45,247 nt of DNA from assembly GCA_018240485.1 (NCBI GenBank), contig JAFEFR010000044.1, forward strand, positions 1 to 45,247, read 5' to 3'. A program made the translations under genes and the position numbers. This stretch comes from Pseudomonadota bacterium (lineage in GTDB: Bacteria > Pseudomonadota > Gammaproteobacteria > Xanthomonadales > Rhodanobacteraceae). The notes beneath the pieces are model-generated. The model had not been told where the DNA came from. It saw only the letters and a list, made by a program, of their open reading frames with translations, and did not search any database. The first letter of the stretch is position 1; every line of letters begins with the position of its first letter. Shown one piece after another: positions 34,984 through 45,128 of the stretch.

Positions 34984-35140
34984 GCGGACCTGGAGGAGTG
35001 CGAGGATGTGCGATCGAATCGCCGTACGCGGGCTATTCTGCAACGATTCGCGCCCGTCGGCATTCGTTATGCACCGCTAACAGATGCTGCGCAGTTTGCC
35101 GGTATACTCGCACCGATTTCCACAGCGCAGACGGATGGCA

Positions 35141-38100
35141 ATGTCGAAACCTCGCCGAGGGCGCCCGCAAAACCTGCTCGTCGATCTTGCTTGCTTCCTA
35201 CCCGCCCTGGTTGCGTATGCGCTGGCGGTATTGGTTCGCCACCCTACGATCGTGCTCGTGCTGATCCTCGGCAACGCCTTGACCATGGCGGCAATCATCC
35301 ACGCCATGCGCCCCGCCAGTCGCAGCGGATTCGCCGCGCGCCTTGCCCCCGGCGGCGTCGCCTGCTTCCTCTTGAGCGGGGTCTATGCCGGAGTTTTTGC
35401 GATCGTGGCATTCTTTCCGGTGCGGCTTGCGCTTGCCGATGCCTCGCTGGTCACGGCGTTGCTGTTGTCGGCGGCGGCATTCGTTCTGCTGCTTGCACCG
35501 TGGCGCGCATGGCCTGCCTTCGGACTTGCCGCAGCGTTCGACCTGTTACCCCTCGCACGCACGCGGCTTGGCGCGATCGCCACGGTCGAACGCAGCGTCG
35601 ATCTCGCCCATCGCTTGACGGCGCGCGAAGAGTTGTTCTTCCCGCAAGGACTGATCGTGTCGTTGGCGCTGTTCTCGTTGACCTTCGGTGCGTTCGCCCT
35701 GGGCGATATCGCCGTGGCGCTACCCGACATCGATCGCCGCATCGCCCTCGGCATTTACGCGCTGTTGCTCGCGCCGATCGCGCAATGGTTCATCGCCCGG
35801 GCAGGCCTCAGGGCGATCGTCGAACAGCGCGATCTGTTGCTGCGACGCGAGCCCGCGGAGGCCGAACCGGCGCCCGCACCGACGACACGCGAAGACATTC
35901 TTCCGCCGAGTCTGTCGATCGAGCCCGCGCCATCGGCGCCGCCACCGGCAGCGCAACCGGATGCCGCCGAACTCGACGCGCGCTTGTTGCGTTGCGCGCG
36001 GGCGGGCGACGGTGCGGGCGCACTCCTCATGCTCGAGCAGGGCGCCAACCCGAATTCCGTGCCGGGGCCGGGTGATCGCGATCAACGCTCGGTCGTCGTT
36101 CTCGCCTGCGTCGCCCGCGACCTGGCCTTGCTGCGTGCGCTCATCGGCAAGGGCGCCGATCTCAATCGCTCTCATGCCGGGCTGGCGCCGTTGATCGCGG
36201 CGACGCGCGACAGCTACCTCGGTCGGCCCGATGTGGTCACGACGTTGCTGACCAACGGTGCCGATCCGAACTGCACGGACGCCGACGGCAACACGCCCCT
36301 GCATTTCGCCGTGCGTGTGGCCGAGCCGACCGTCGCCGCTCTGCTTTGCGACGCATCGGCGCCGATCGATGCCGTGAATCGCGAAGGCTACACGGCGCTC
36401 GGCGTCGCCTGTGCTGCGGGGCGCGTCGACCTCGTGCGCTTCCTGCTCGAACGTCGCGCCGGCATTGAAATCGCCCACGCCGTGCCGGCCTTGATCGCCG
36501 CCGCCGCCACGCCCGACGACGACACCGACATCGTCAAGCTGCTGCTCAAACGCGGTGCGCGCGTCGACATCGTCGATCGCCACGGACGCGCACCGCTCGC
36601 GATCGCCGCGCAACACGACAACGCGCATATCGCCGCGCTGTTGCTCAAATCCGGTGCTGTCATCGATGCCGCCGACTCTCTTGGCGTCACCGCCCTCATG
36701 GAGGCGGCGCTTGCCGGTGCGACCGAATCCCTCGACGTGCTCGGGGCACACGCGCCTGCGCTGGAACAAACCGATCACGTCGGCCGTACCGCGTTGATGT
36801 TTGCGGCCGAATCGATCCATGCCGACGACGATGGCGTTGCGCGCCTGCTTGCCCTTGGCGCATCACCAGCGACCGCCACGCCGGAAGGAAAGCGCGCGGT
36901 CGACTTTGCCGCTGCGGCAGGGCGTTGGCGCAGCGTCGCCTTGCTCGATCCGGAGTACGCATTGCCGGCCAGCGTCGATGCACCGGCGGCGCCGACGGCG
37001 CTCGCGCGCCCGGATTCGCCCGCTCACTTGCTCGATGCATTGCGGTTCGGCCATTGGCAGATCGCCGAGGATTTCGCCGACGTGCAACACGGCTGGCCGA
37101 TGACGCAACGCGCGCAGATGTTCGTCGATCTCGCCGCGCACGGCAACCCGACCGCGCGGTTGTGGCTGCTCGATCACGGACTGGATACAAATGCACGCCT
37201 GTCCGGCGGCGCCACGCTCGTCGGCGCCTTGCTCATGCAATTGCCGACCAGTCTGACGGCGCTGCGCGAAGCGCTCGATGCCGGCGCGCAAGTCACTGGC
37301 GTTGGCGTGCTCGATCCCATTCTCGACGCGCTCGTGCGTCATCCCGAGCGTCGCGAAGAACTCGAAACGCTCGCTCTGGCGATGATCGATCGCGGCGCGG
37401 ATATCTTCGCCGCCGACGCGAACCGGCAGACGCTGCTGGTACGCAGCATTGGCGCGGGCAGCGTGCGCACGACGCTGGCCTTGCTTGCGCGCGGCGTCGA
37501 CCCGAACGCGCGCGACCGGCGCGGTCGCTCGCCTTTGTTCGCTGCCTTCGCTTTGCCCTCGGGCATGGCCGAGACGATGACGCGTGCGCTGATCCGCGCG
37601 GGTGCCGATCCCGAGCTTGCCGCCGCCAACGGCGAAACCCCGCTCGGCATTGCCCTGGCTTCACCACATACCGGCCTGCGGCACTGGCTCGATTGGGCAC
37701 CGTGGAAGCTACCGCTGCGCCCGCTGCGCGAGACGGATCTGCATGCCGCCGCACAACGGGGCGACACGGCCGCCGTGGTGAAGCTGATCGAGCTTGGTCT
37801 GCCGATCGACGCACCCGATGCGAAGGGCGCCAGCGCCCTGATGCGCGCCGCCGGTGCGGGCAACGTGGAAATGCTTTCCCTGTTGCTCGAGCGCGGTGCC
37901 GACCTTGCGCAAACGGCGGCGAACGGTGCAACACCCCTGTCTGCGGCGATCACCGCACACCGCCCGAACATCGTCGAATTGCTGCTCGATCGCGGCCTGC
38001 CCGTCGACCAGCGCGTGCCGGGTGGCGGTACGCTGCTGATGATTGCGGCGGCCCTGGGTTATTCCGACATCGCCTCGATTCTGCTGGCTCGCGGCGCGGA

Positions 38101-38593
38101 TGCAAACGCGCACGACGAGCGGGGTACGCGCCCGTTGCATGCCGCTGCGCAATTCGCTTTCTCCCAGCGCGACACCGCACGCGCGCGGCAAGTGCTCGAA
38201 CTGCTCATCGCCAAGGGCGCGCAGCTCGATGCCTGCGACGAGCGCGGCACCAGTGCCTTGCATGTGCTGCTCGGCGCGCGCGCGGAACCGCGTAGCGTCG
38301 GCGATCAACAGCACCTGCAATCGCTGCTCTCGCTGTTTCTCGTCGGCCGCGCCAACGTCAATGGCCAGGACAATCGCGGCGTCTCGCCATTGCATGCCTG
38401 CGCGATGCACGGTTTGATGCTGCCTGCTCGCGCCTTGCTCGCCGCGCATGCCGATCCGGAAGCCATCGATTCGCTGGGCCGTACGCCACGCGAAGTCGCC
38501 GAACTGCTCGGCTTCATCGACGTCGCCGCCGAGCTGACCGTGCGCGTGCCGACGTCGATGCCGCTGCCCGGCAAACCGGCGGCGCAACGCTAG
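35141..38593 (+). CDS. Membrane-anchored ankyrin repeat protein
   Basis: Several N-terminal TMs, a Pro-rich linker and many ankyrin repeats (GNTPLHFA, GYTALGVA, GVTALMEA, GATPLSAA, GVSPLHAC). Confidence 0.92.
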   Translation: MSKPRRGRPQNLLVDLACFLPALVAYALAVLVRHPTIVLVLILGNALTMAAIIHAMRPASRSGFAARLAPGGVACFLLSGVYAGVFAIVAFFPVRLALADASLVTALLLSAAAFVLLLAPWRAWPAFGLAAAFDLLPLARTRLGAIATVERSVDLAHRLTAREELFFPQGLIVSLALFSLTFGAFALGDIAVALPDIDRRIALGIYALLLAPIAQWFIARAGLRAIVEQRDLLLRREPAEAEPAPAPTTREDILPPSLSIEPAPSAPPPAAQPDAAELDARLLRCARAGDGAGALLMLEQGANPNSVPGPGDRDQRSVVVLACVARDLALLRALIGKGADLNRSHAGLAPLIAATRDSYLGRPDVVTTLLTNGADPNCTDADGNTPLHFAVRVAEPTVAALLCDASAPIDAVNREGYTALGVACAAGRVDLVRFLLERRAGIEIAHAVPALIAAAATPDDDTDIVKLLLKRGARVDIVDRHGRAPLAIAAQHDNAHIAALLLKSGAVIDAADSLGVTALMEAALAGATESLDVLGAHAPALEQTDHVGRTALMFAAESIHADDDGVARLLALGASPATATPEGKRAVDFAAAAGRWRSVALLDPEYALPASVDAPAAPTALARPDSPAHLLDALRFGHWQIAEDFADVQHGWPMTQRAQMFVDLAAHGNPTARLWLLDHGLDTNARLSGGATLVGALLMQLPTSLTALREALDAGAQVTGVGVLDPILDALVRHPERREELETLALAMIDRGADIFAADANRQTLLVRSIGAGSVRTTLALLARGVDPNARDRRGRSPLFAAFALPSGMAETMTRALIRAGADPELAAANGETPLGIALASPHTGLRHWLDWAPWKLPLRPLRETDLHAAAQRGDTAAVVKLIELGLPIDAPDAKGASALMRAAGAGNVEMLSLLLERGADLAQTAANGATPLSAAITAHRPNIVELLLDRGLPVDQRVPGGGTLLMIAAALGYSDIASILLARGADANAHDERGTRPLHAAAQFAFSQRDTARARQVLELLIAKGAQLDACDERGTSALHVLLGARAEPRSVGDQQHLQSLLSLFLVGRANVNGQDNRGVSPLHACAMHGLMLPARALLAAHADPEAIDSLGRTPREVAELLGFIDVAAELTVRVPTSMPLPGKPAAQR

Positions 38594-39960: not shown

Positions 39961-40380
39961 TCAGCGCCGTCGGTGTTCGAGAAAATCCGCAGGCGTCATG
40001 ATCGCGACGCCGCGAAATGGATGCAGGTCGAGCAAATCATGATCGCTGCTGACCAAAACGACGGCCGCGCAGGAAACGGCCAGCGCTAGGAATTTGTCGT
40101 CCTTGGGATCGCGGCACGCCTTGGCGCTTTCGCGCACGTCACAAGACGTCGTGACTTTCCGATACAGATCGAGAAACGCACTACGCTCGCTGCGATCGAG
40201 ATAGCGGTCGAACTTCGCGCGCAACAACACGTTTTCGAGTTTTCGCAACGTGTCGGGCGACGTACAGATTTCATGGCCGGCGAGCGCCTTGCGAAAAGCC
40301 TGCGCCGGCGTCGATTCGACACGCAATGCCGCGCTGACCAGCGTGCTCGTGTCGAATACGACACGCTCAACGAAGCGCAT
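39961..40380 (-). CDS. PIN-domain toxin (VapC-like)
   Basis: VVFDTSTLVSA, CRDPKDDKFLALA, LVSSDHDLL. Overlaps the antitoxin. Confidence 0.9.
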   Translation of the reverse strand: MRFVERVVFDTSTLVSAALRVESTPAQAFRKALAGHEICTSPDTLRKLENVLLRAKFDRYLDRSERSAFLDLYRKVTTSCDVRESAKACRDPKDDKFLALAVSCAAVVLVSSDHDLLDLHPFRGVAIMTPADFLEHRRR

Positions 40381-40642
40381 CGACCATCCGGCTCACGTCG
40401 GCATCCGTCAGTTTTTTCGCCGCAGCGGACACCTTGCCAGCCACGCGCGCTCGATAGGCGTCATAGGCTTTCACGGCGGCGGCGCGGCGATCGCGCCCTT
40501 CGATCAACTCCTGCATGTCCGCTGGTGAAACAAGAAAGGCGACAGGGCGGCCGCGGCGAGTGATGGTCACCGGCTCGCGCTGCGCGGTGTCCAGCAATTC
40601 ACCAAAGCGGTTTTGCGCTTCAACCGACGACAAGGTTTTCAT
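40367..40642 (-). CDS. Phd/YefM family antitoxin
   Basis: MKTLSSVEAQNRFGELLD..EPVTITRRGRPVA. GAGG RBS. Confidence 0.92.
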   Translation of the reverse strand: MKTLSSVEAQNRFGELLDTAQREPVTITRRGRPVAFLVSPADMQELIEGRDRRAAAVKAYDAYRARVAGKVSAAAKKLTDADVSRMVDALR

Positions 40643-40720: not shown

Positions 40721-40754
40721 TTGACAAGCCGATTCCTGCGACGCAGATTGTCGC
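40721..40754 (+). promoter_or_regulatory. Sigma70 promoter of the WYL gene overlapped by putative WYL operator 1
   Basis: TTGACA-N17-CAGATT. The palindrome TGCGAC-GCAGATT-GTCGC (40737-54) straddles the -10. Confidence 0.7.
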
Positions 40755-40827
40755 CTTTTCATGCGACAAGGCGCACAACGAAGCACAGCGCCCGCGCATG
40801 CCATCCTCGCCCTACCGGATTGCGACC

Positions 40828-41859
40828 ATGTCCAAGCATCAGGATGCCTTGCTGCGCCAATGGAGCATGTTGCGCCGCGTGCCGCGCTATCCGGCCAAGG
40901 TCACCGTGCAAGCGTTGCGGGAGAAACTGGCCGACGATGGTTTCGAGATCACGCAGCGATCGCTGCAACGCGACCTCAACGAATTGTCGGGCGCGTTCGC
41001 CATCGTCTGCGACGACCGCGAGAAGCCCTACGGCTGGAGCTGGCAGAAGGACGCGCCGAGCCTCGACCTGCCCGGCCTCACGCCCGCACAGGCGCTGACG
41101 CTCGCGATGGCCGAGCAGCACCTGCAAAACCTGCTGCCCGCACCGATGCTCGAACAACTGCGCCCGTACTTCCTCGCCGCGCGCCAACGCCTCGACGCCG
41201 AACCTGCGCCACGCCGCAGCCGCCGCTGGCTCGACAAAGTTCGCTCGGTGCCGGCAACGCAGGCCTTGCTCGCGCCGTCCATCGACGCCGGCGTGCAGGA
41301 CGCGGTGACCGAGGCCCTGCTGCACGAACGCCAACTCGACATCTGCTACCGCCGCCGCGGCGAGCGCACGGATGCGCAGGCGCGCGTGCATCCACTCGCG
41401 CTGGTGCAGCGCGGGCCGGTGCTGTACCTGTCCTGCCGCTTCTACGACTACGAGGACGTGCGCATGCTGCCGCTGCATCGCATCTCGTTCGCGCAAGTGC
41501 GCGATGAGGCCGCCCGCTACCCGAAACACTTCTCGCTCGACGAGCAGATCGAACAAGGCGAATGGGCGTTCGGCTCCGGCAAGAAGATCAAACTGGTCGC
41601 GCTTTTCGAAGCCGAACACGGCGAGCATCTCTACGAAACGCCGCTGTCGAAGGATCAGAAGATCGACGTGTTGCCGGATGGCAAGCTGCGCGTCACCGCG
41701 ACGGTGGCCGATACTCCGCAGTTGGTGTGGTGGTTGTTGGGGTTTGGTTGCGGGATCGAAGTACAAAATACGAAGGCGCTTCGAACTCGCCTTCGTGAAG
41801 CTGCGATTGGAATGGCGAGTTTGTACCGAGAGAAGCGACGAGGAACGCCTAGACTGTAA
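40828..41859 (+). CDS. HTH-WYL-WCX transcriptional regulator
   Basis: wHTH ITQRSLQRDLNEL, WYL VHPLALVQRGPVLYL..LPLHRI, WCX ETPLSKDQ..QLVWWLLGFG. Confidence 0.95.
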   Translation: MSKHQDALLRQWSMLRRVPRYPAKVTVQALREKLADDGFEITQRSLQRDLNELSGAFAIVCDDREKPYGWSWQKDAPSLDLPGLTPAQALTLAMAEQHLQNLLPAPMLEQLRPYFLAARQRLDAEPAPRRSRRWLDKVRSVPATQALLAPSIDAGVQDAVTEALLHERQLDICYRRRGERTDAQARVHPLALVQRGPVLYLSCRFYDYEDVRMLPLHRISFAQVRDEAARYPKHFSLDEQIEQGEWAFGSGKKIKLVALFEAEHGEHLYETPLSKDQKIDVLPDGKLRVTATVADTPQLVWWLLGFGCGIEVQNTKALRTRLREAAIGMASLYREKRRGTPRL

Positions 41860-42508
41860 GCGGTTGTAGTGTTTGAAAATCCGTCGTCCACGTCCAGCTA
41901 GGCAAGCCATCTGACCTGTCTTGTCGGCCAACTAGGATGAGATATTCAGAGTTGTCCTTGGCGGAATAGCAAGCATCAACCTTGTTGCGCATATCGAGCA
42001 GCCGTTTTAATTGCTCTCGGCATCGTTTCGATGGCTCCAATCCCGGTCGATCGTATGTAACGATGACTTTGAGTGGCGCACGCCAGAACAGGAGCTTCCA
42101 CATTTCTTCCTGGATGAGATTGATCTTGTTCTCATGTTCGATGACGACGGCTAGGTGCGACGCGTACCCCCAGTGCGGATCGTTCTCATTCCCGCCAAAT
42201 AGACTCACGCCATTTACAAACATCATGTCAATCCGATTCTCCTCCTTACGGATTTGCTTCGGCTCAAAACGAAGATCTTGCCCACAAAGACCAAGAAGCC
42301 CTTTTTTCCCCATCCATTCAGCGAGATCTACTGGCACTTTTTTTTCGTTTGCGTCTCCTAGCATCCACGCGGTCCACTGGCTCCCATCCTCATAAGCGCC
42401 AAAGACTGCTCGCTGCTCCATGCGGCTCAAGAGCTCTTCCCACCGCAACCCGAATACTTTCAGAAAGTCCTGTGAGGAAATTATCCTTGCGTTTGATGTG
42501 TCGTTCAT
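41849..42508 (-). CDS. Hypothetical protein, putative PD-(D/E)XK-like nuclease
   Basis: Lower-GC ORF with the pattern E..RID...IEHEN...EEMWKL..LKVIVTY. Confidence 0.6.
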   Translation of the reverse strand: MNDTSNARIISSQDFLKVFGLRWEELLSRMEQRAVFGAYEDGSQWTAWMLGDANEKKVPVDLAEWMGKKGLLGLCGQDLRFEPKQIRKEENRIDMMFVNGVSLFGGNENDPHWGYASHLAVVIEHENKINLIQEEMWKLLFWRAPLKVIVTYDRPGLEPSKRCREQLKRLLDMRNKVDACYSAKDNSEYLILVGRQDRSDGLPSWTWTTDFQTLQPLTV

Positions 42509-42570
42509 AGCGATTGCACGGTTCGCATTGCGGCTGACGATAGTAGTCAGACGATGTAGCTGCAAAAGGT

Positions 42571-42604
42571 TGCGACCCAATTTGTCGCATGTATGTTGCA
42601 TATT
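42571..42604 (+). promoter_or_regulatory. Putative WYL operator 2 with downstream -10
   Basis: Perfect TGCGAC-CCAATTT-GTCGCA (42571-89). CATATT lies 10 nt after TGTCGC. Confidence 0.7.
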
Positions 42605-42638
42605 GCAGTGTACCAGAAGCGATGAATGCTGCTATCAC

Positions 42639-43058
42639 ATGCCGAGACGCATGAGACGCGAGAGACTGTACGTCCCTTTTGAGTCGCTGACGACCAAAGA
42701 TCAGGAACGCCGCCGACAGCTCAACCTGCGCCTGCGCGAAATCGAGGCATGGGCGCATGCGCGTACTCCGGCGGTCGATACCATGAAATCGATGACGAAA
42801 TTTGCGCCGCGCCTGTTGCTGGCGGCGTGTATTCAAACTGCATTTCTGCCGGCGCTGGTCCCTGGCGCACCGCACGGGAGCGCGAATGTCGTGTCCGAAT
42901 ACCGCGTCGAGTACAAGCTGCGAAACCTCGGGACCGGGGCAATTGGCGAATCGCACGTTGCCTACGTGCGCGCGCCGAGCGAGGCCAACGTCGTGGCCGA
43001 ACTGCGTCGGCAGAACCCCGGCAAGGACGTAGTGATTCTTTCGTTGGTCGGGAAGTAG
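42639..43058 (+). CDS. Hypothetical protein (alternative start 42783 gives a signal-peptide-like N-terminus)
   Basis: First ATG after operator 2. Compact C-terminal domain EYRVEYKL..VRAPSEANVVAELRRQNPGKDVVILSL. 15 nt from the next gene. Confidence 0.55.
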   Translation: MPRRMRRERLYVPFESLTTKDQERRRQLNLRLREIEAWAHARTPAVDTMKSMTKFAPRLLLAACIQTAFLPALVPGAPHGSANVVSEYRVEYKLRNLGTGAIGESHVAYVRAPSEANVVAELRRQNPGKDVVILSLVGK

Positions 43059-43073
43059 GCACGGCAGCGCTGA

Positions 43074-43895
43074 ATGCAAACGCATGTCCCGAACGGTTGG
43101 GATCATCCAAGACTGGCGCTGCTGACCGACAACGGCATGGCGTGGCGCTTCCGTGCGCAACTCGCCACCAGGGATTACGCCGTGATCGATTGCCGTGGCG
43201 CATCCCCATCGGCAGTCTATGACGAGCTGGTGCGCCTGCAGCCCTATGTGATCGCCGTTTCCCTGCGTGATCCGCAACGGTATGCGACCACGGTTCTCGA
43301 TTATGCGAGTGCAAAACGATGCGCCGACTACTGCCTGTTTTGGGCAGGCCCGCAACAATGGCTGCGCGGCCTCGATCCGCAGTTGCTCGAGCACCTTGGG
43401 GAAAGCCATCTCCCGGAATATAACGAACGCTCGGCGCTGCAGGATGCGATCGCGCTTGCGCGCCTGTTGTTCATGACCGGCCATCCGGGCCTGATCAGCG
43501 TTGATCTTGTGGATATTCGCACGTGTTTGGCCAGTGGTGGACAGAATGCGCGCTTCGCCGTGGAGTCCATCTACATTCCCAATCCGCCACGCCGCCGCTC
43601 CTGTCACAAGCAGCTGCGCCGCCTGCGGCGGAAATTCGCCGATGTGCGCGGAGCAGGTATCTGCTTTGAACTGCAACATGGCTTTCGCCTGTCAGATTTG
43701 GATGTGGTTTTTGGAGCGATGCACGATTCCGTTTCTGAATCCACGCTCATTGTTGCCGGAGCTCCGAGCCATGTCCTGAGACCATGCGGACTGAAAATGC
43801 GCCTGCTGATCGGATTTGTTTGGCTACCGCCAGACAGCCGCGCAGCGACCATCGACAGTGACCTGCCCGGTTTTTTCAGACCACGGATAGGTTGA
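43074..43895 (+). CDS. Degenerate FtsZ-like protein (T7 loop, C-terminal domain and C-terminal peptide; no GTP-binding signature)
   Basis: PGLISVDLVDIRTCL resembles FtsZ PGL(I/M)NVDFADVRTVM. VRGAGICFELQHGFRLSDLDVVFGAMHDSVSESTLIVAG resembles ARGVLVNITAGFDLRLDEFETVGNTIRAFASDNATVVIG. The tail DLPGFFR resembles DIPAFLR. No GGGTGTG. Confidence 0.75.
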   Translation: MQTHVPNGWDHPRLALLTDNGMAWRFRAQLATRDYAVIDCRGASPSAVYDELVRLQPYVIAVSLRDPQRYATTVLDYASAKRCADYCLFWAGPQQWLRGLDPQLLEHLGESHLPEYNERSALQDAIALARLLFMTGHPGLISVDLVDIRTCLASGGQNARFAVESIYIPNPPRRRSCHKQLRRLRRKFADVRGAGICFELQHGFRLSDLDVVFGAMHDSVSESTLIVAGAPSHVLRPCGLKMRLLIGFVWLPPDSRAATIDSDLPGFFRPRIG

Positions 43896-43972
43896 GGACG
43901 GCTTCCGGTTGACGTTGACCGGAATTTCGAACACTTCAAAACCAGAGGCAGGTCAACCGCTAACCTCAAGTC

Positions 43973-44006
43973 ATACGACATTGTTTGTCGCAGGCATCAA
44001 GACAAT
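43973..44006 (+). promoter_or_regulatory. Putative WYL operator 3 with downstream -10
   Basis: ATACGAC-ATTGTTT-GTCGCA (43973-92). GACAAT lies 9 nt after TGTCGC. Confidence 0.7.
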
Positions 44007-44037
44007 GGGCGGCATTCCAAACCCATTGCATGCCACC

Positions 44038-44994
44038 ATGTCCGAACGCGACACCTTGCGCAGGCTGATCGACGCTTGTGCGCAAACACTCAACGCTGCC
44101 ATTCGCAGCGGAGACTATTCGACGCAGCATGTGCGGGAAATCGTCTCTGCCGCCAACCAAAAGATACAGATCATTGCGGACGAAACCGAGTGGCGCAGTT
44201 CTTCCGCCGCGGTGGGATTGCGTTCTTCGGTCAAGGATGCGTTCCAGGTCATTCATCATCGCCATGAAAGGAAGGGGGCCGCTCCCGGCCTGCCGACAGG
44301 CTTTGTCAAACTCGATGAATTGATGGGCGGATTCATGCCCGGCAGCCTGATTGCCCTGGCATCGGAGGCTTGTGCCGGCAAGTCCGCTCTGGCAGCGCAG
44401 ATCGCCGCGCATCGCGCCGTGGAGGACAAACAACCCGTTTGCGTGTTCTCGATGAAACGATCGGCCACGGAATACACGCTGCGCTTGATCGCGGCGTTGG
44501 GCTCGGTCGATCGGCAACACCTGCGCGATGGCAACTTTGAGGAAGATGACTGGCCCAGCGTGACGAAAGCGATCACGCAACTCAGCGATGCAAAAATTCT
44601 TGTTGATGCCACGACCACGCAGTCCATTCTCACCCTGCGCTCGCGCATGCGTGCCACGCTGCGCATGCATAAGGCGAAGCTGGTCGTGATCGACAGTCTG
44701 GAGCTGATGGACAAACCCGACTGCGCGGCTGACCTGCGCGGCATAGCCCGAGAATTCGATGCCGCCGTGCTGGTACTTGCCCAATCGCGCGGCGCAGTCG
44801 ATGTGTACGCACGCCTGCGTGATCATTCGCTCGAAGATCATGCCGATGCGATCCTGCTGCTGGACCGCAATCAAACCGATTCCCCCGAAAGCGCGCGGCT
44901 CATCGTCGCGCGCAATCGCAATGGCCGCACGGGCGAGGTGAAGCTGCGCTATTTCCCGCAATTCGCATGGTTTGAGGAGGCTCGAACGGCATGA
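44038..44994 (+). CDS. DnaB-like helicase paralog, N-terminally truncated and degenerate
   Basis: GLPTGFVKLDELMGGF..GSLI, AGKS Walker A, FSMK in place of FSLE, VIDSLELM, SLEDHADAILLLDR, ARNRNGRTG. Confidence 0.88.
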   Translation: MSERDTLRRLIDACAQTLNAAIRSGDYSTQHVREIVSAANQKIQIIADETEWRSSSAAVGLRSSVKDAFQVIHHRHERKGAAPGLPTGFVKLDELMGGFMPGSLIALASEACAGKSALAAQIAAHRAVEDKQPVCVFSMKRSATEYTLRLIAALGSVDRQHLRDGNFEEDDWPSVTKAITQLSDAKILVDATTTQSILTLRSRMRATLRMHKAKLVVIDSLELMDKPDCAADLRGIAREFDAAVLVLAQSRGAVDVYARLRDHSLEDHADAILLLDRNQTDSPESARLIVARNRNGRTGEVKLRYFPQFAWFEEARTA

Positions 44995-45128
44995 GCGATG
45001 AAGTCAACGCGAATCCCGAGACTTCGCAGTCGCATGGCCGCACGCTGTTCTGCGGACTCGTGATGATCGTTGCTCTTGTTTTTGCATTGCACACGATCTT
45101 TTCGCTACGTCCGCGCGTCATTCCTTGA
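44991..45128 (+). CDS. 45-aa single-TM peptide translationally coupled to the DnaB paralog
   Basis: ATGA start/stop overlap and GAGGAGG RBS upstream. Sequence MSDEVNANPETSQSHGRTLFCGLVMIVALVFALHTIFSLRPRVIP. Confidence 0.6.
   Translation: MSDEVNANPETSQSHGRTLFCGLVMIVALVFALHTIFSLRPRVIP

Follow-up and report, generated by a model that had tools for sequence, protein, structure and literature searches.

The window examined here, a 45,247-nt stretch of a Rhodanobacteraceae assembly (GCA_018240485.1, contig JAFEFR010000044.1), carries a genomic island in which a WYL-domain regulator stands upstream of an FtsZ-like gene and a DnaB paralogue. Along the island lie a Phd/PIN pair on the reverse strand, the winged helix-turn-helix (wHTH)-WYL-WCX regulator, a convergent open reading frame (ORF), a 139-aa ORF, a 273-aa ORF encoding the FtsZ-like protein, the DnaB paralogue and a 45-aa membrane peptide. 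The parts named in an earlier note on this DNA, namely the regulator, a repeated palindrome (hereafter box), the FtsZ-like ORF, the DnaB paralogue and the transmembrane peptide, were all recovered. The host genome's own ftsZ and dnaB sit on other contigs.

The island is an insertion between truC and ubiB. Of five genomes, two gave a truC match: truC abuts ubiB in G044, and the two genes are ~0.8 kb apart in G019. Among 55 genomes of the genus (26 at least 90% complete), a close regulator orthologue and the DnaB copy each occur in the same three (G000, G003 and G039) and at the same site. Regulator, boxes and DnaB copy thus stand together in G003 and G039 as well, which bears out part of the association proposed in the earlier note, and the FtsZ-like gene is present in two of the three islands. 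The remaining cargo differs: the DnaB copy of G003 is inverted relative to the window, and a double AAA ATPase that is missing from the window is present in G039. The cargo is modular and not a fixed operon. A locus at a different site, L014, is a deletion derivative, a collapsed island in which the regulator N-terminus is fused in frame to the end of an AAA ATPase and followed by the membrane peptide (L014:7001-7928).

The regulator and its boxes

The 343-aa regulator (40828-41859, forward strand) matches Pfam WYL and WCX and is 38% identical over 308 aa to Acinetobacter baumannii DdaA (pairwise E 1e-72); DdaA was also matched by tblastn at E 1e-60 in a plasmid collection. The DdaA sequence was pinned down by exact matches to three primers from the PMC12392091 supplement, and the regulator falls within the 260-400 aa by which wHTH-WYL-WCX homologues were assigned to the DdaA family. 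According to PMC12392091, the ancestral DdaA controlled neighbouring genes whose function is not known, restriction-modification (RM) and CRISPR genes are activated by DdaA, and BrxR and CapW form a clade separate from it. DNA repair and replication are represented in the regulons of DriD and DdaA, for example by dnaG, recJ and recA (PMC9186387, PMC12392091).

Three copies of the palindrome noted earlier were confirmed, starting at 40738, 42572 and 43975. Box 1 (40738-40754, GCGAC-N7-GTCGC) overlaps a predicted -10 hexamer (40744-40749) of the regulator's own predicted promoter, whose -35 hexamer TTGACA lies 17 bp upstream (40721-40726, forward strand). Box 2 (42572-42588, forward strand) is followed after 11 nt by the -10-like CATATT (42599), and box 3 (43975-43991, forward strand) after 10 nt by the -10-like GACAAT (44001). 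The exact pattern [GA]CGAC-N7-GTCG[CT] was fixed after the boxes had been seen, its core being the published DriD consensus; it occurs three times in 4.6 kb, a count reached in none of 5000 dinucleotide shuffles, and at least two copies occur in none of 448 host tiles. Over the whole window and with one mismatch allowed, three matches lie within what chance gives (26 of 100 shuffles). G003 and G039 also have three boxes, and in G003 the three precede the same genes as in the window, the third having moved with the inverted DnaB copy.

The boxes resemble known sites of this regulator group. Their core is the DriD site CGAC-N7-GTCG (PMC12041258), and the left arm of box 3 matches the DriD site ATACGAC. 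The DdaA motif CGWCA-N5-TGWCG (PMC12392091) is matched in full by box 3 and with one base off by boxes 1 and 2, and the consensus in the regulator family is GCGACA-N5-TGTCGC. DriD sites overlap the -35 position (PMC13004042), and the didA promoter from the same source fits the box-to--10 spacing found here by our own alignment.

This geometry extends to relatives of the regulator. In 91 related-regulator loci, 120 boxes were found in 69 loci, compared with 0-10 in 20 base shuffles. A -10-like hexamer stands at +10/+11 of 80 of 122 distinct boxes, whereas each of seven control offset pairs gave 2-9, and none of the 59 chance boxes in the host genome has one at +10/+11. When 97 loci were collapsed at 70% identity into 37 regulator clusters, 20 of the 27 box-bearing clusters showed the +10/+11 geometry and four showed it at a control offset.

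Boxes 2 and 3 are predicted to be activator-dependent promoters: the cargo boxes have activator and not repressor geometry because they, like the 80 related boxes, replace the -35 element. Box 1 differs. As it covers a -10-like hexamer 17 bp after a perfect TTGACA, an arrangement kept in four of four close orthologues, its position suggests autorepression, as has likewise been proposed for driD (PMC9186387). A -10 inside every box, which would be repressor geometry, was considered as a general rule and failed outside the four close orthologues.

A different switch would be a BrxR/CapW-type repressor whose boxes are operators released by single-stranded DNA (ssDNA). The inverted repeats bound by BrxR have their arms 5 bp apart (PMC9122601), and box 1, overlapping the predicted -10 that follows a perfect -35, would fit such a repressor. 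An operator that blocks a complete promoter is, however, true of box 1 at the regulator's own promoter and not of the cargo boxes, which take the place of a -35. Together with the homology to DdaA and the separate clade of BrxR and CapW (PMC12392091), this makes a repressor of that type very unlikely. The WYL control proposed in the earlier note can be refined, as a prediction from box geometry and DdaA homology, to DdaA/DriD-type activation, and by the same evidence the switch is known in kind, being a local DdaA/DriD-type regulon.

The DnaB and FtsZ copies

The DnaB paralogue (318 aa, 44038-44994, forward strand) starts at host residue ~118, so that the first ~117 residues, and with them the N-terminal domain, are missing. 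Its Lys140 stands in place of Glu253, which we take, from E. coli E262, to be the catalytic residue. The alignment agrees with the earlier note, which had described a copy without catalytic Glu and N-terminal domain. Lys occupies the position in all 10 aligned rows, some of them near-duplicates, and two loops are deleted in all nine rows that reach them. The copy retains the Walker A Lys, the Walker B Asp and an Arg-finger-like motif. The copy scores 179 bits against TIGR00665, for which the cut-off is 385. In the tree, a seven-row clade of such copies is placed among the genus's housekeeping DnaBs on a long branch (support 92/86, below the starred threshold), and the copy probably groups with the host genus's own DnaB.

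The ratio of nonsynonymous to synonymous substitution rates (dN/dS) of the DnaB copy is 0.19-0.25 (three genome pairs, Nei-Gojobori, dS 0.9-1.8), similar to that of the regulator (0.19-0.24) and of truC (0.18-0.23). The copy is a pseudo-helicase that has been maintained and is not decaying, and the neutral decay that would have counted against the earlier note gives way to purifying selection. The island could also be seen as a gene graveyard, that is, a hotspot of normally silent, activator-dependent promoters at which duplicated host genes are tolerated and erode without function. Deletion scars (the fused 139-aa ORF described below and the regulator-AAA fusion of L014), rapid cargo turnover, long branches in the DnaB tree and weak ribosome-binding sites would all fit. 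Against it, besides the dN/dS, DnaB-copy orthologues 58-78% identical share the start, the substitution, the loop deletions and intact frames, and the FtsZ-like frame stays open in members that share only 23-65% identity with the window protein. We hold the graveyard to be quite unlikely.

The FtsZ-like protein (273 aa, 43074-43895, forward strand) has no Pfam match, and PF00091 gave none in the seven family rows scanned. Its AlphaFold2 model, built from nine sequences, has a predicted local distance difference test score (pLDDT) of 71, and the top Foldseek matches are all FtsZ (E 3.7e-8). Structural alignment of model residues 11-251 with FtsZ 11-316 gives Z 11.1 and a root-mean-square deviation of 4.1 over 217 residues. 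A family profile run against 14,888 host ORFs placed host FtsZ first after the protein itself, at 14.4 bits (best of 500 shuffles 8.4); the match spans the T7 loop and C-terminal domain, and hhalign gives it a probability of 79.

The glycine-rich T1 and T4 loops, which bind GTP, are absent from all nine rows of the family. In the T7 loop (GxxNxDxxD), the first Asp is present in nine of nine and the second in eight of nine, as D144 and D147 in the window protein. The earlier note was right that the GTP site is missing; its view of a protein reduced to FtsZ_C did not hold, as both domains of the FtsZ fold are present in the model and the GTPase domain is reduced in size. For the FtsZ-like pair, dN/dS was not used because of saturation (pS 0.74).

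Relatives of this protein are few by sequence search (3, 6, and 4 of 1.84 billion representatives), and none was confirmed in metagenome contigs, viral contigs or plasmids. Across 401 genomes of the order, the window protein was accompanied by two weak T7/C-terminal matches in longer frames, read as ordinary FtsZ. The ESM Atlas holds many unnamed clusters resembling it. PF12327 matched twice in eight of 400 genomes of the class (G494 included), mostly through split or duplicated ordinary ftsZ, and the two divergent ones whose surroundings were retrieved have no regulator match nearby. A divergent second FtsZ_C match in L029 (G796:C189:17381-17677) scores 47 bits in a 304-aa frame, with no regulator match nearby. 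Two FtsZ-like proteins from Logan lie on contigs equal in length (4834 and 17642) to contigs that encode DnaB-copy proteins, which is a hint of further co-location and no more.

The small transmembrane peptide of the earlier note was confirmed as a single-pass, 45-aa peptide with hydropathy 2.57 (44991-45128, forward strand). It is present in G000, G003, G039 and L014 with dN/dS 0.19, and shares one box with the DnaB copy in G000 and G003.

Related loci and flanking genes

Captured cell-cycle paralogues recur beside the regulator family in unrelated bacteria, which extends the co-occurrence beyond the window. Outside the three islands, the 37 regulator clusters include three with an extra FtsZ, five with DnaB, one with DnaA and two with DnaQ, any of these being found in 7 of 37, and the copies are mostly degraded. 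Measured against housekeeping density, and not against island DNA, the Poisson p is 2e-4 for FtsZ and 2e-7 for DnaB. One clade for all eight tested regulator-linked DnaBs is rejected (approximately unbiased test, p-AU 0.018, with six long or redundant rows omitted and a first tree already seen beforehand), and with it a single origin of the linked DnaB copies.

Several of these loci hold more than one captured gene. In L064 (251-3575), an independent locus beside the same regulator family, the DnaB has changes in its catalytic and Walker B motifs, and the FtsZ carries a leader and has no C-terminal tail. An activator-type box in L033 (2387-5862) is followed by a DnaA ATPase region without N-terminal domains and by two degenerate FtsZ copies, both with twin-arginine-like or Arg-rich leaders. 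GTPase-domain-only FtsZ proteins with twin-arginine-like leaders, a mirror image of the window protein, are encoded in L069 (2250-5958) and L079 (2846-3604), and in L069 an intact DnaB comes directly after the box. In L011 (962-3406), a box followed by dnaQ occurs twice in tandem; one of the two copies is degenerate, and both begin with twin-arginine-like leaders.

Fusions also occur. A weak FtsK-gamma-like stretch, below the Pfam cut-off, lies behind a box in L057 (2435-3568), where it is joined to a SIR2 domain; it stands alone with a twin-arginine-like leader in L043 (1376-1732) and is fused to a DnaB copy in P0015. In L010 (2492-4168), a 558-aa fusion joins an unassigned N-terminal region, free-standing in L013, L074 and L075, to a DnaB C-terminal domain in which Glu is replaced by Asp. 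The twin-arginine-like leader pattern was found in 9 of 576 picked ORFs, five of them captured paralogues and one the FtsK-gamma protein; none matched a Pfam Tat-signal model at E 0.001, and the FtsZ and DnaB copies of the window are without such leaders. The commonest partners of the regulator, in L005 (8669-10774) and about a dozen loci, are a ~700-aa double AAA ATPase, DUF2779 and 5'-nucleotidase, and a literature search found no paper covering both WYL and DUF2779.

Flanking genes of the island behave as passengers. The Phd/YefM antitoxin (40367-40642, reverse strand) and the PIN-domain toxin (39961-40380, reverse strand) form the toxin-antitoxin pair named in the earlier note. Their presence is confirmed and their place in the regulon is not, as a different gene pair occupies this position in G003 and G039, and the pair faces away from the activated promoters, with no -10 at +10/11 on the side of box 1 towards it. 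The convergent ORF (41849-42508, reverse strand, ~219 aa, 50% GC) exists as noted, yet its earlier label as a putative nuclease found no support: there is no match in Pfam, NCBIfam, PADLOC or PHROG, and its model (pLDDT 43) has no fold match. What follows the regulator differs from island to island, the genes in the three being unrelated to one another (in G039, a UDG-like gene), and no activator-type promoter faces the window's ORF. Both this ORF and the toxin-antitoxin pair are probably outside the regulon.

The 139-aa ORF (42639-43058, forward strand), formerly a small unknown protein, is an in-frame deletion fusion of two genes that are separate ORFs in G039. Its first 46 codons come from a longer gene and run on into a 91-aa protein that has a hydrophobic leader and a second start at 42783; the 91-aa part has a counterpart in G003, and its dN/dS was not used because the window row is out of frame. 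PADLOC (2023 library), run on eight proteins, returned only generic WYL models and one weak PIN match. Elsewhere in the window (35084-38593), a 1169-aa protein has N-terminal membrane segments and many ankyrin-like repeats, and is 75% conserved upstream of yajQ in G003.

Proposed function and known systems

Our leading interpretation, which we hold at a little under an even chance, is that the DdaA-family switch turns on the stripped-down FtsZ and DnaB copies and the membrane peptide as dominant-negative brakes on division and replication upon DNA damage or the replication of foreign DNA. Very likely, a regulator dimer would bind the boxes that replace the -35 element and recruit RNA polymerase as DriD and DdaA do, with box 1 limiting its own expression. 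The inducing signal would probably be ssDNA or a related damage product. As helical hairpin, linker and RecA domain are kept, the DnaB copy might enter host hexamers, to which we give slightly less than even odds; there it would lack the catalytic Glu and the primase-binding domain, and its ssDNA loops would be too short. An FtsZ subunit that has the T7/C-terminal face but lacks the GTP face could join the GTP-bearing end of a filament and stop it. The FtsZ copy would have the one and not the other, so it might cap the GTP-bearing end of a protofilament, which is possible but rather less probable than not. That the membrane peptide acts like DidA or SidA, which it resembles in size and hydrophobicity only, is doubtful.

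A number of observations weigh against braking. In the regulator, the first ssDNA-binding Arg is Pro, where DdaA and 26 of 33 pattern-matching clade proteins have Ala, and most island genes have weak ribosome-binding sites. The FtsZ-like protein shares no more than 12-13% identity with FtsZ, none of the nine rows retains the T7 Asn, the T7 region is poorly modelled (pLDDT <50 at 137-156), and of the nine rows only the window protein has an FtsZ-like tail peptide. Its gene is absent from the G039 island, and orthologues in another genus (G963 and G952, among four FtsZ-like matches in 301 genomes of the family) have no regulator, DnaB copy or box within ~8 kb, so the fixed system of the earlier note is not upheld. 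The DnaB-copy branch is long and its placement below threshold. In 30 of the 37 clusters, the locus DNA examined contains no such paralogue, and the enrichment null does not represent island DNA, DnaB homologues being common on mobile elements.

Two further points on this side bear on other explanations. Firstly, among 72 neighbour proteins scanned with Pfam, chosen by family size, post-box position and interest from the 576 picked ORFs and the island genes, those that could be named are mostly of defence-island types. The cargo of the regulator family includes McrBC, GmrSD, MmeI, PvuRts1I and SIR2, and RM and CRISPR genes are activated by DdaA (PMC12392091). This would suit decoys: once induced, the paralogues would soak up inhibitors that phages or plasmids direct at FtsZ and DnaB, or would serve a partner effector as baits, and division and replication would be protected and not blocked. 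The FtsK-gamma-like stretch fused to SIR2 looks like bait plus effector, and loss of catalysis with retention of the fold fits decoys equally well. However, 12-13% identity to FtsZ would leave few inhibitor-binding surfaces, no effector is conserved beside both genes in the three islands, and PADLOC has no match for the FtsZ-like protein or the DnaB copy. Decoys are, in our estimate, unlikely.

Secondly, the linked DnaBs of L069/L070 and L109 are intact. The DnaB copy could have become an ATP-binding scaffold or sensor in repair or fork restart, with an unrelated job for the FtsZ fold and adjacency reflecting a shared inducible promoter only. Purifying selection acts on a copy that still has the Walker A Lys, Walker B Asp and Arg-finger-like motif, DriD and DdaA regulons hold repair and replication genes, and the FtsZ-fold gene occurs apart from the others. 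Repeated capture of FtsZ, DnaA, DnaB and DnaQ, mostly with damaged active sites, would be unexpected if the jobs were unrelated, and we regard new functions as improbable, placing them after decoys. Dominant-negative braking, tentative as it is, ranks first, ahead of decoys, new jobs, decay and repression.

More broadly, and more speculatively, DdaA-family islands might be a recurrent route by which copies of a cell's own ftsZ, dnaB, dnaA and dnaQ, and of an ftsK fragment, are captured, disarmed and put under a damage-sensing activator as inducible dominant-negative checkpoints; the leaders seen elsewhere could tether or export the host partner with which a copy oligomerises. To our knowledge, the brakes so far described that damage induces on division or replication are small, unrelated proteins. 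Brakes or decoys that are themselves disarmed versions of their targets, and captured repeatedly under one sensor family, would be a new checkpoint or abortive-infection design. They would supply natural single-face FtsZ inhibitors and pseudo-DnaB inhibitors, and would answer the open question of the DdaA paper on what ancestral local DdaA regulons do. The locus is a strong lead because disarmed cell-cycle genes are repeatedly captured under one sensor family.

We found no paper describing disarmed FtsZ or DnaB cargo under a DdaA/DriD-type regulator in literature searches judged by title and start of abstract, in a library with few subscription papers. Within that coverage the outputs are undescribed, and the switch is known in kind; the earlier statement that no system of this composition had been described stands for the cargo and not for the switch. 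Neither dnaB nor ftsZ appears as a DdaA target in the text portions and supplement matches of PMC12392091. DdaA of Moraxellaceae is a homologous wHTH-WYL-WCX protein (335-343 aa, 38%) with the same palindromic motif, a replaced first ssDNA-binding Arg (Ala there, Pro in the window protein) and, in basal lineages, self-regulation as predicted here (PMC12392091). The present case differs from it in its local island regulon, its Xanthomonadales-type hosts and its disarmed FtsZ and DnaB copies as predicted targets.

DriD of Caulobacter crescentus shares the box core and the box-to--10 spacing. Its own promoter also carries a box, and its targets include a small membrane peptide (DidA, to which ours is likened by size and hydrophobicity only), but it drives native dnaG, recJ, recA, bapE and the FtsN inhibitor DidA and not degenerate paralogues (PMC9186387, PMC13004042). 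BrxR and CapW are likewise island-borne WYL regulators with inverted repeats and variable defence-type cargo (PMC9122601, PMC13622015). Unlike the regulator described here, they are repressors of another clade, with an operator that lies downstream of the promoter and does not replace the -35.

MciZ is an FtsZ inhibitor that blocks polymerisation through one subunit face, the outcome proposed here for the FtsZ copy. SulA does the same (PMC9186387). The folds of both are unrelated to FtsZ, whereas the candidate inhibitor is itself of FtsZ fold. FtsZl1 and FtsZl2 are divergent FtsZ-family proteins beside a normal ftsZ; they keep the T1/T4 loops and have other C-terminal domains, FtsZl1 lying in a vWA operon (PMC2875224). 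The window protein, in contrast, has lost the T1/T4 loops and keeps the FtsZ C-terminal domain. Extra DnaB proteins on acquired DNA are known from phages, as in Ban of P1, and from integrative and conjugative elements (TIGR03600, NF040583). Both models are of full-length helicases, whereas the DnaB copy falls far below the cut-offs of both, is truncated and without catalytic Glu, and probably groups with the DnaB of its own genus.

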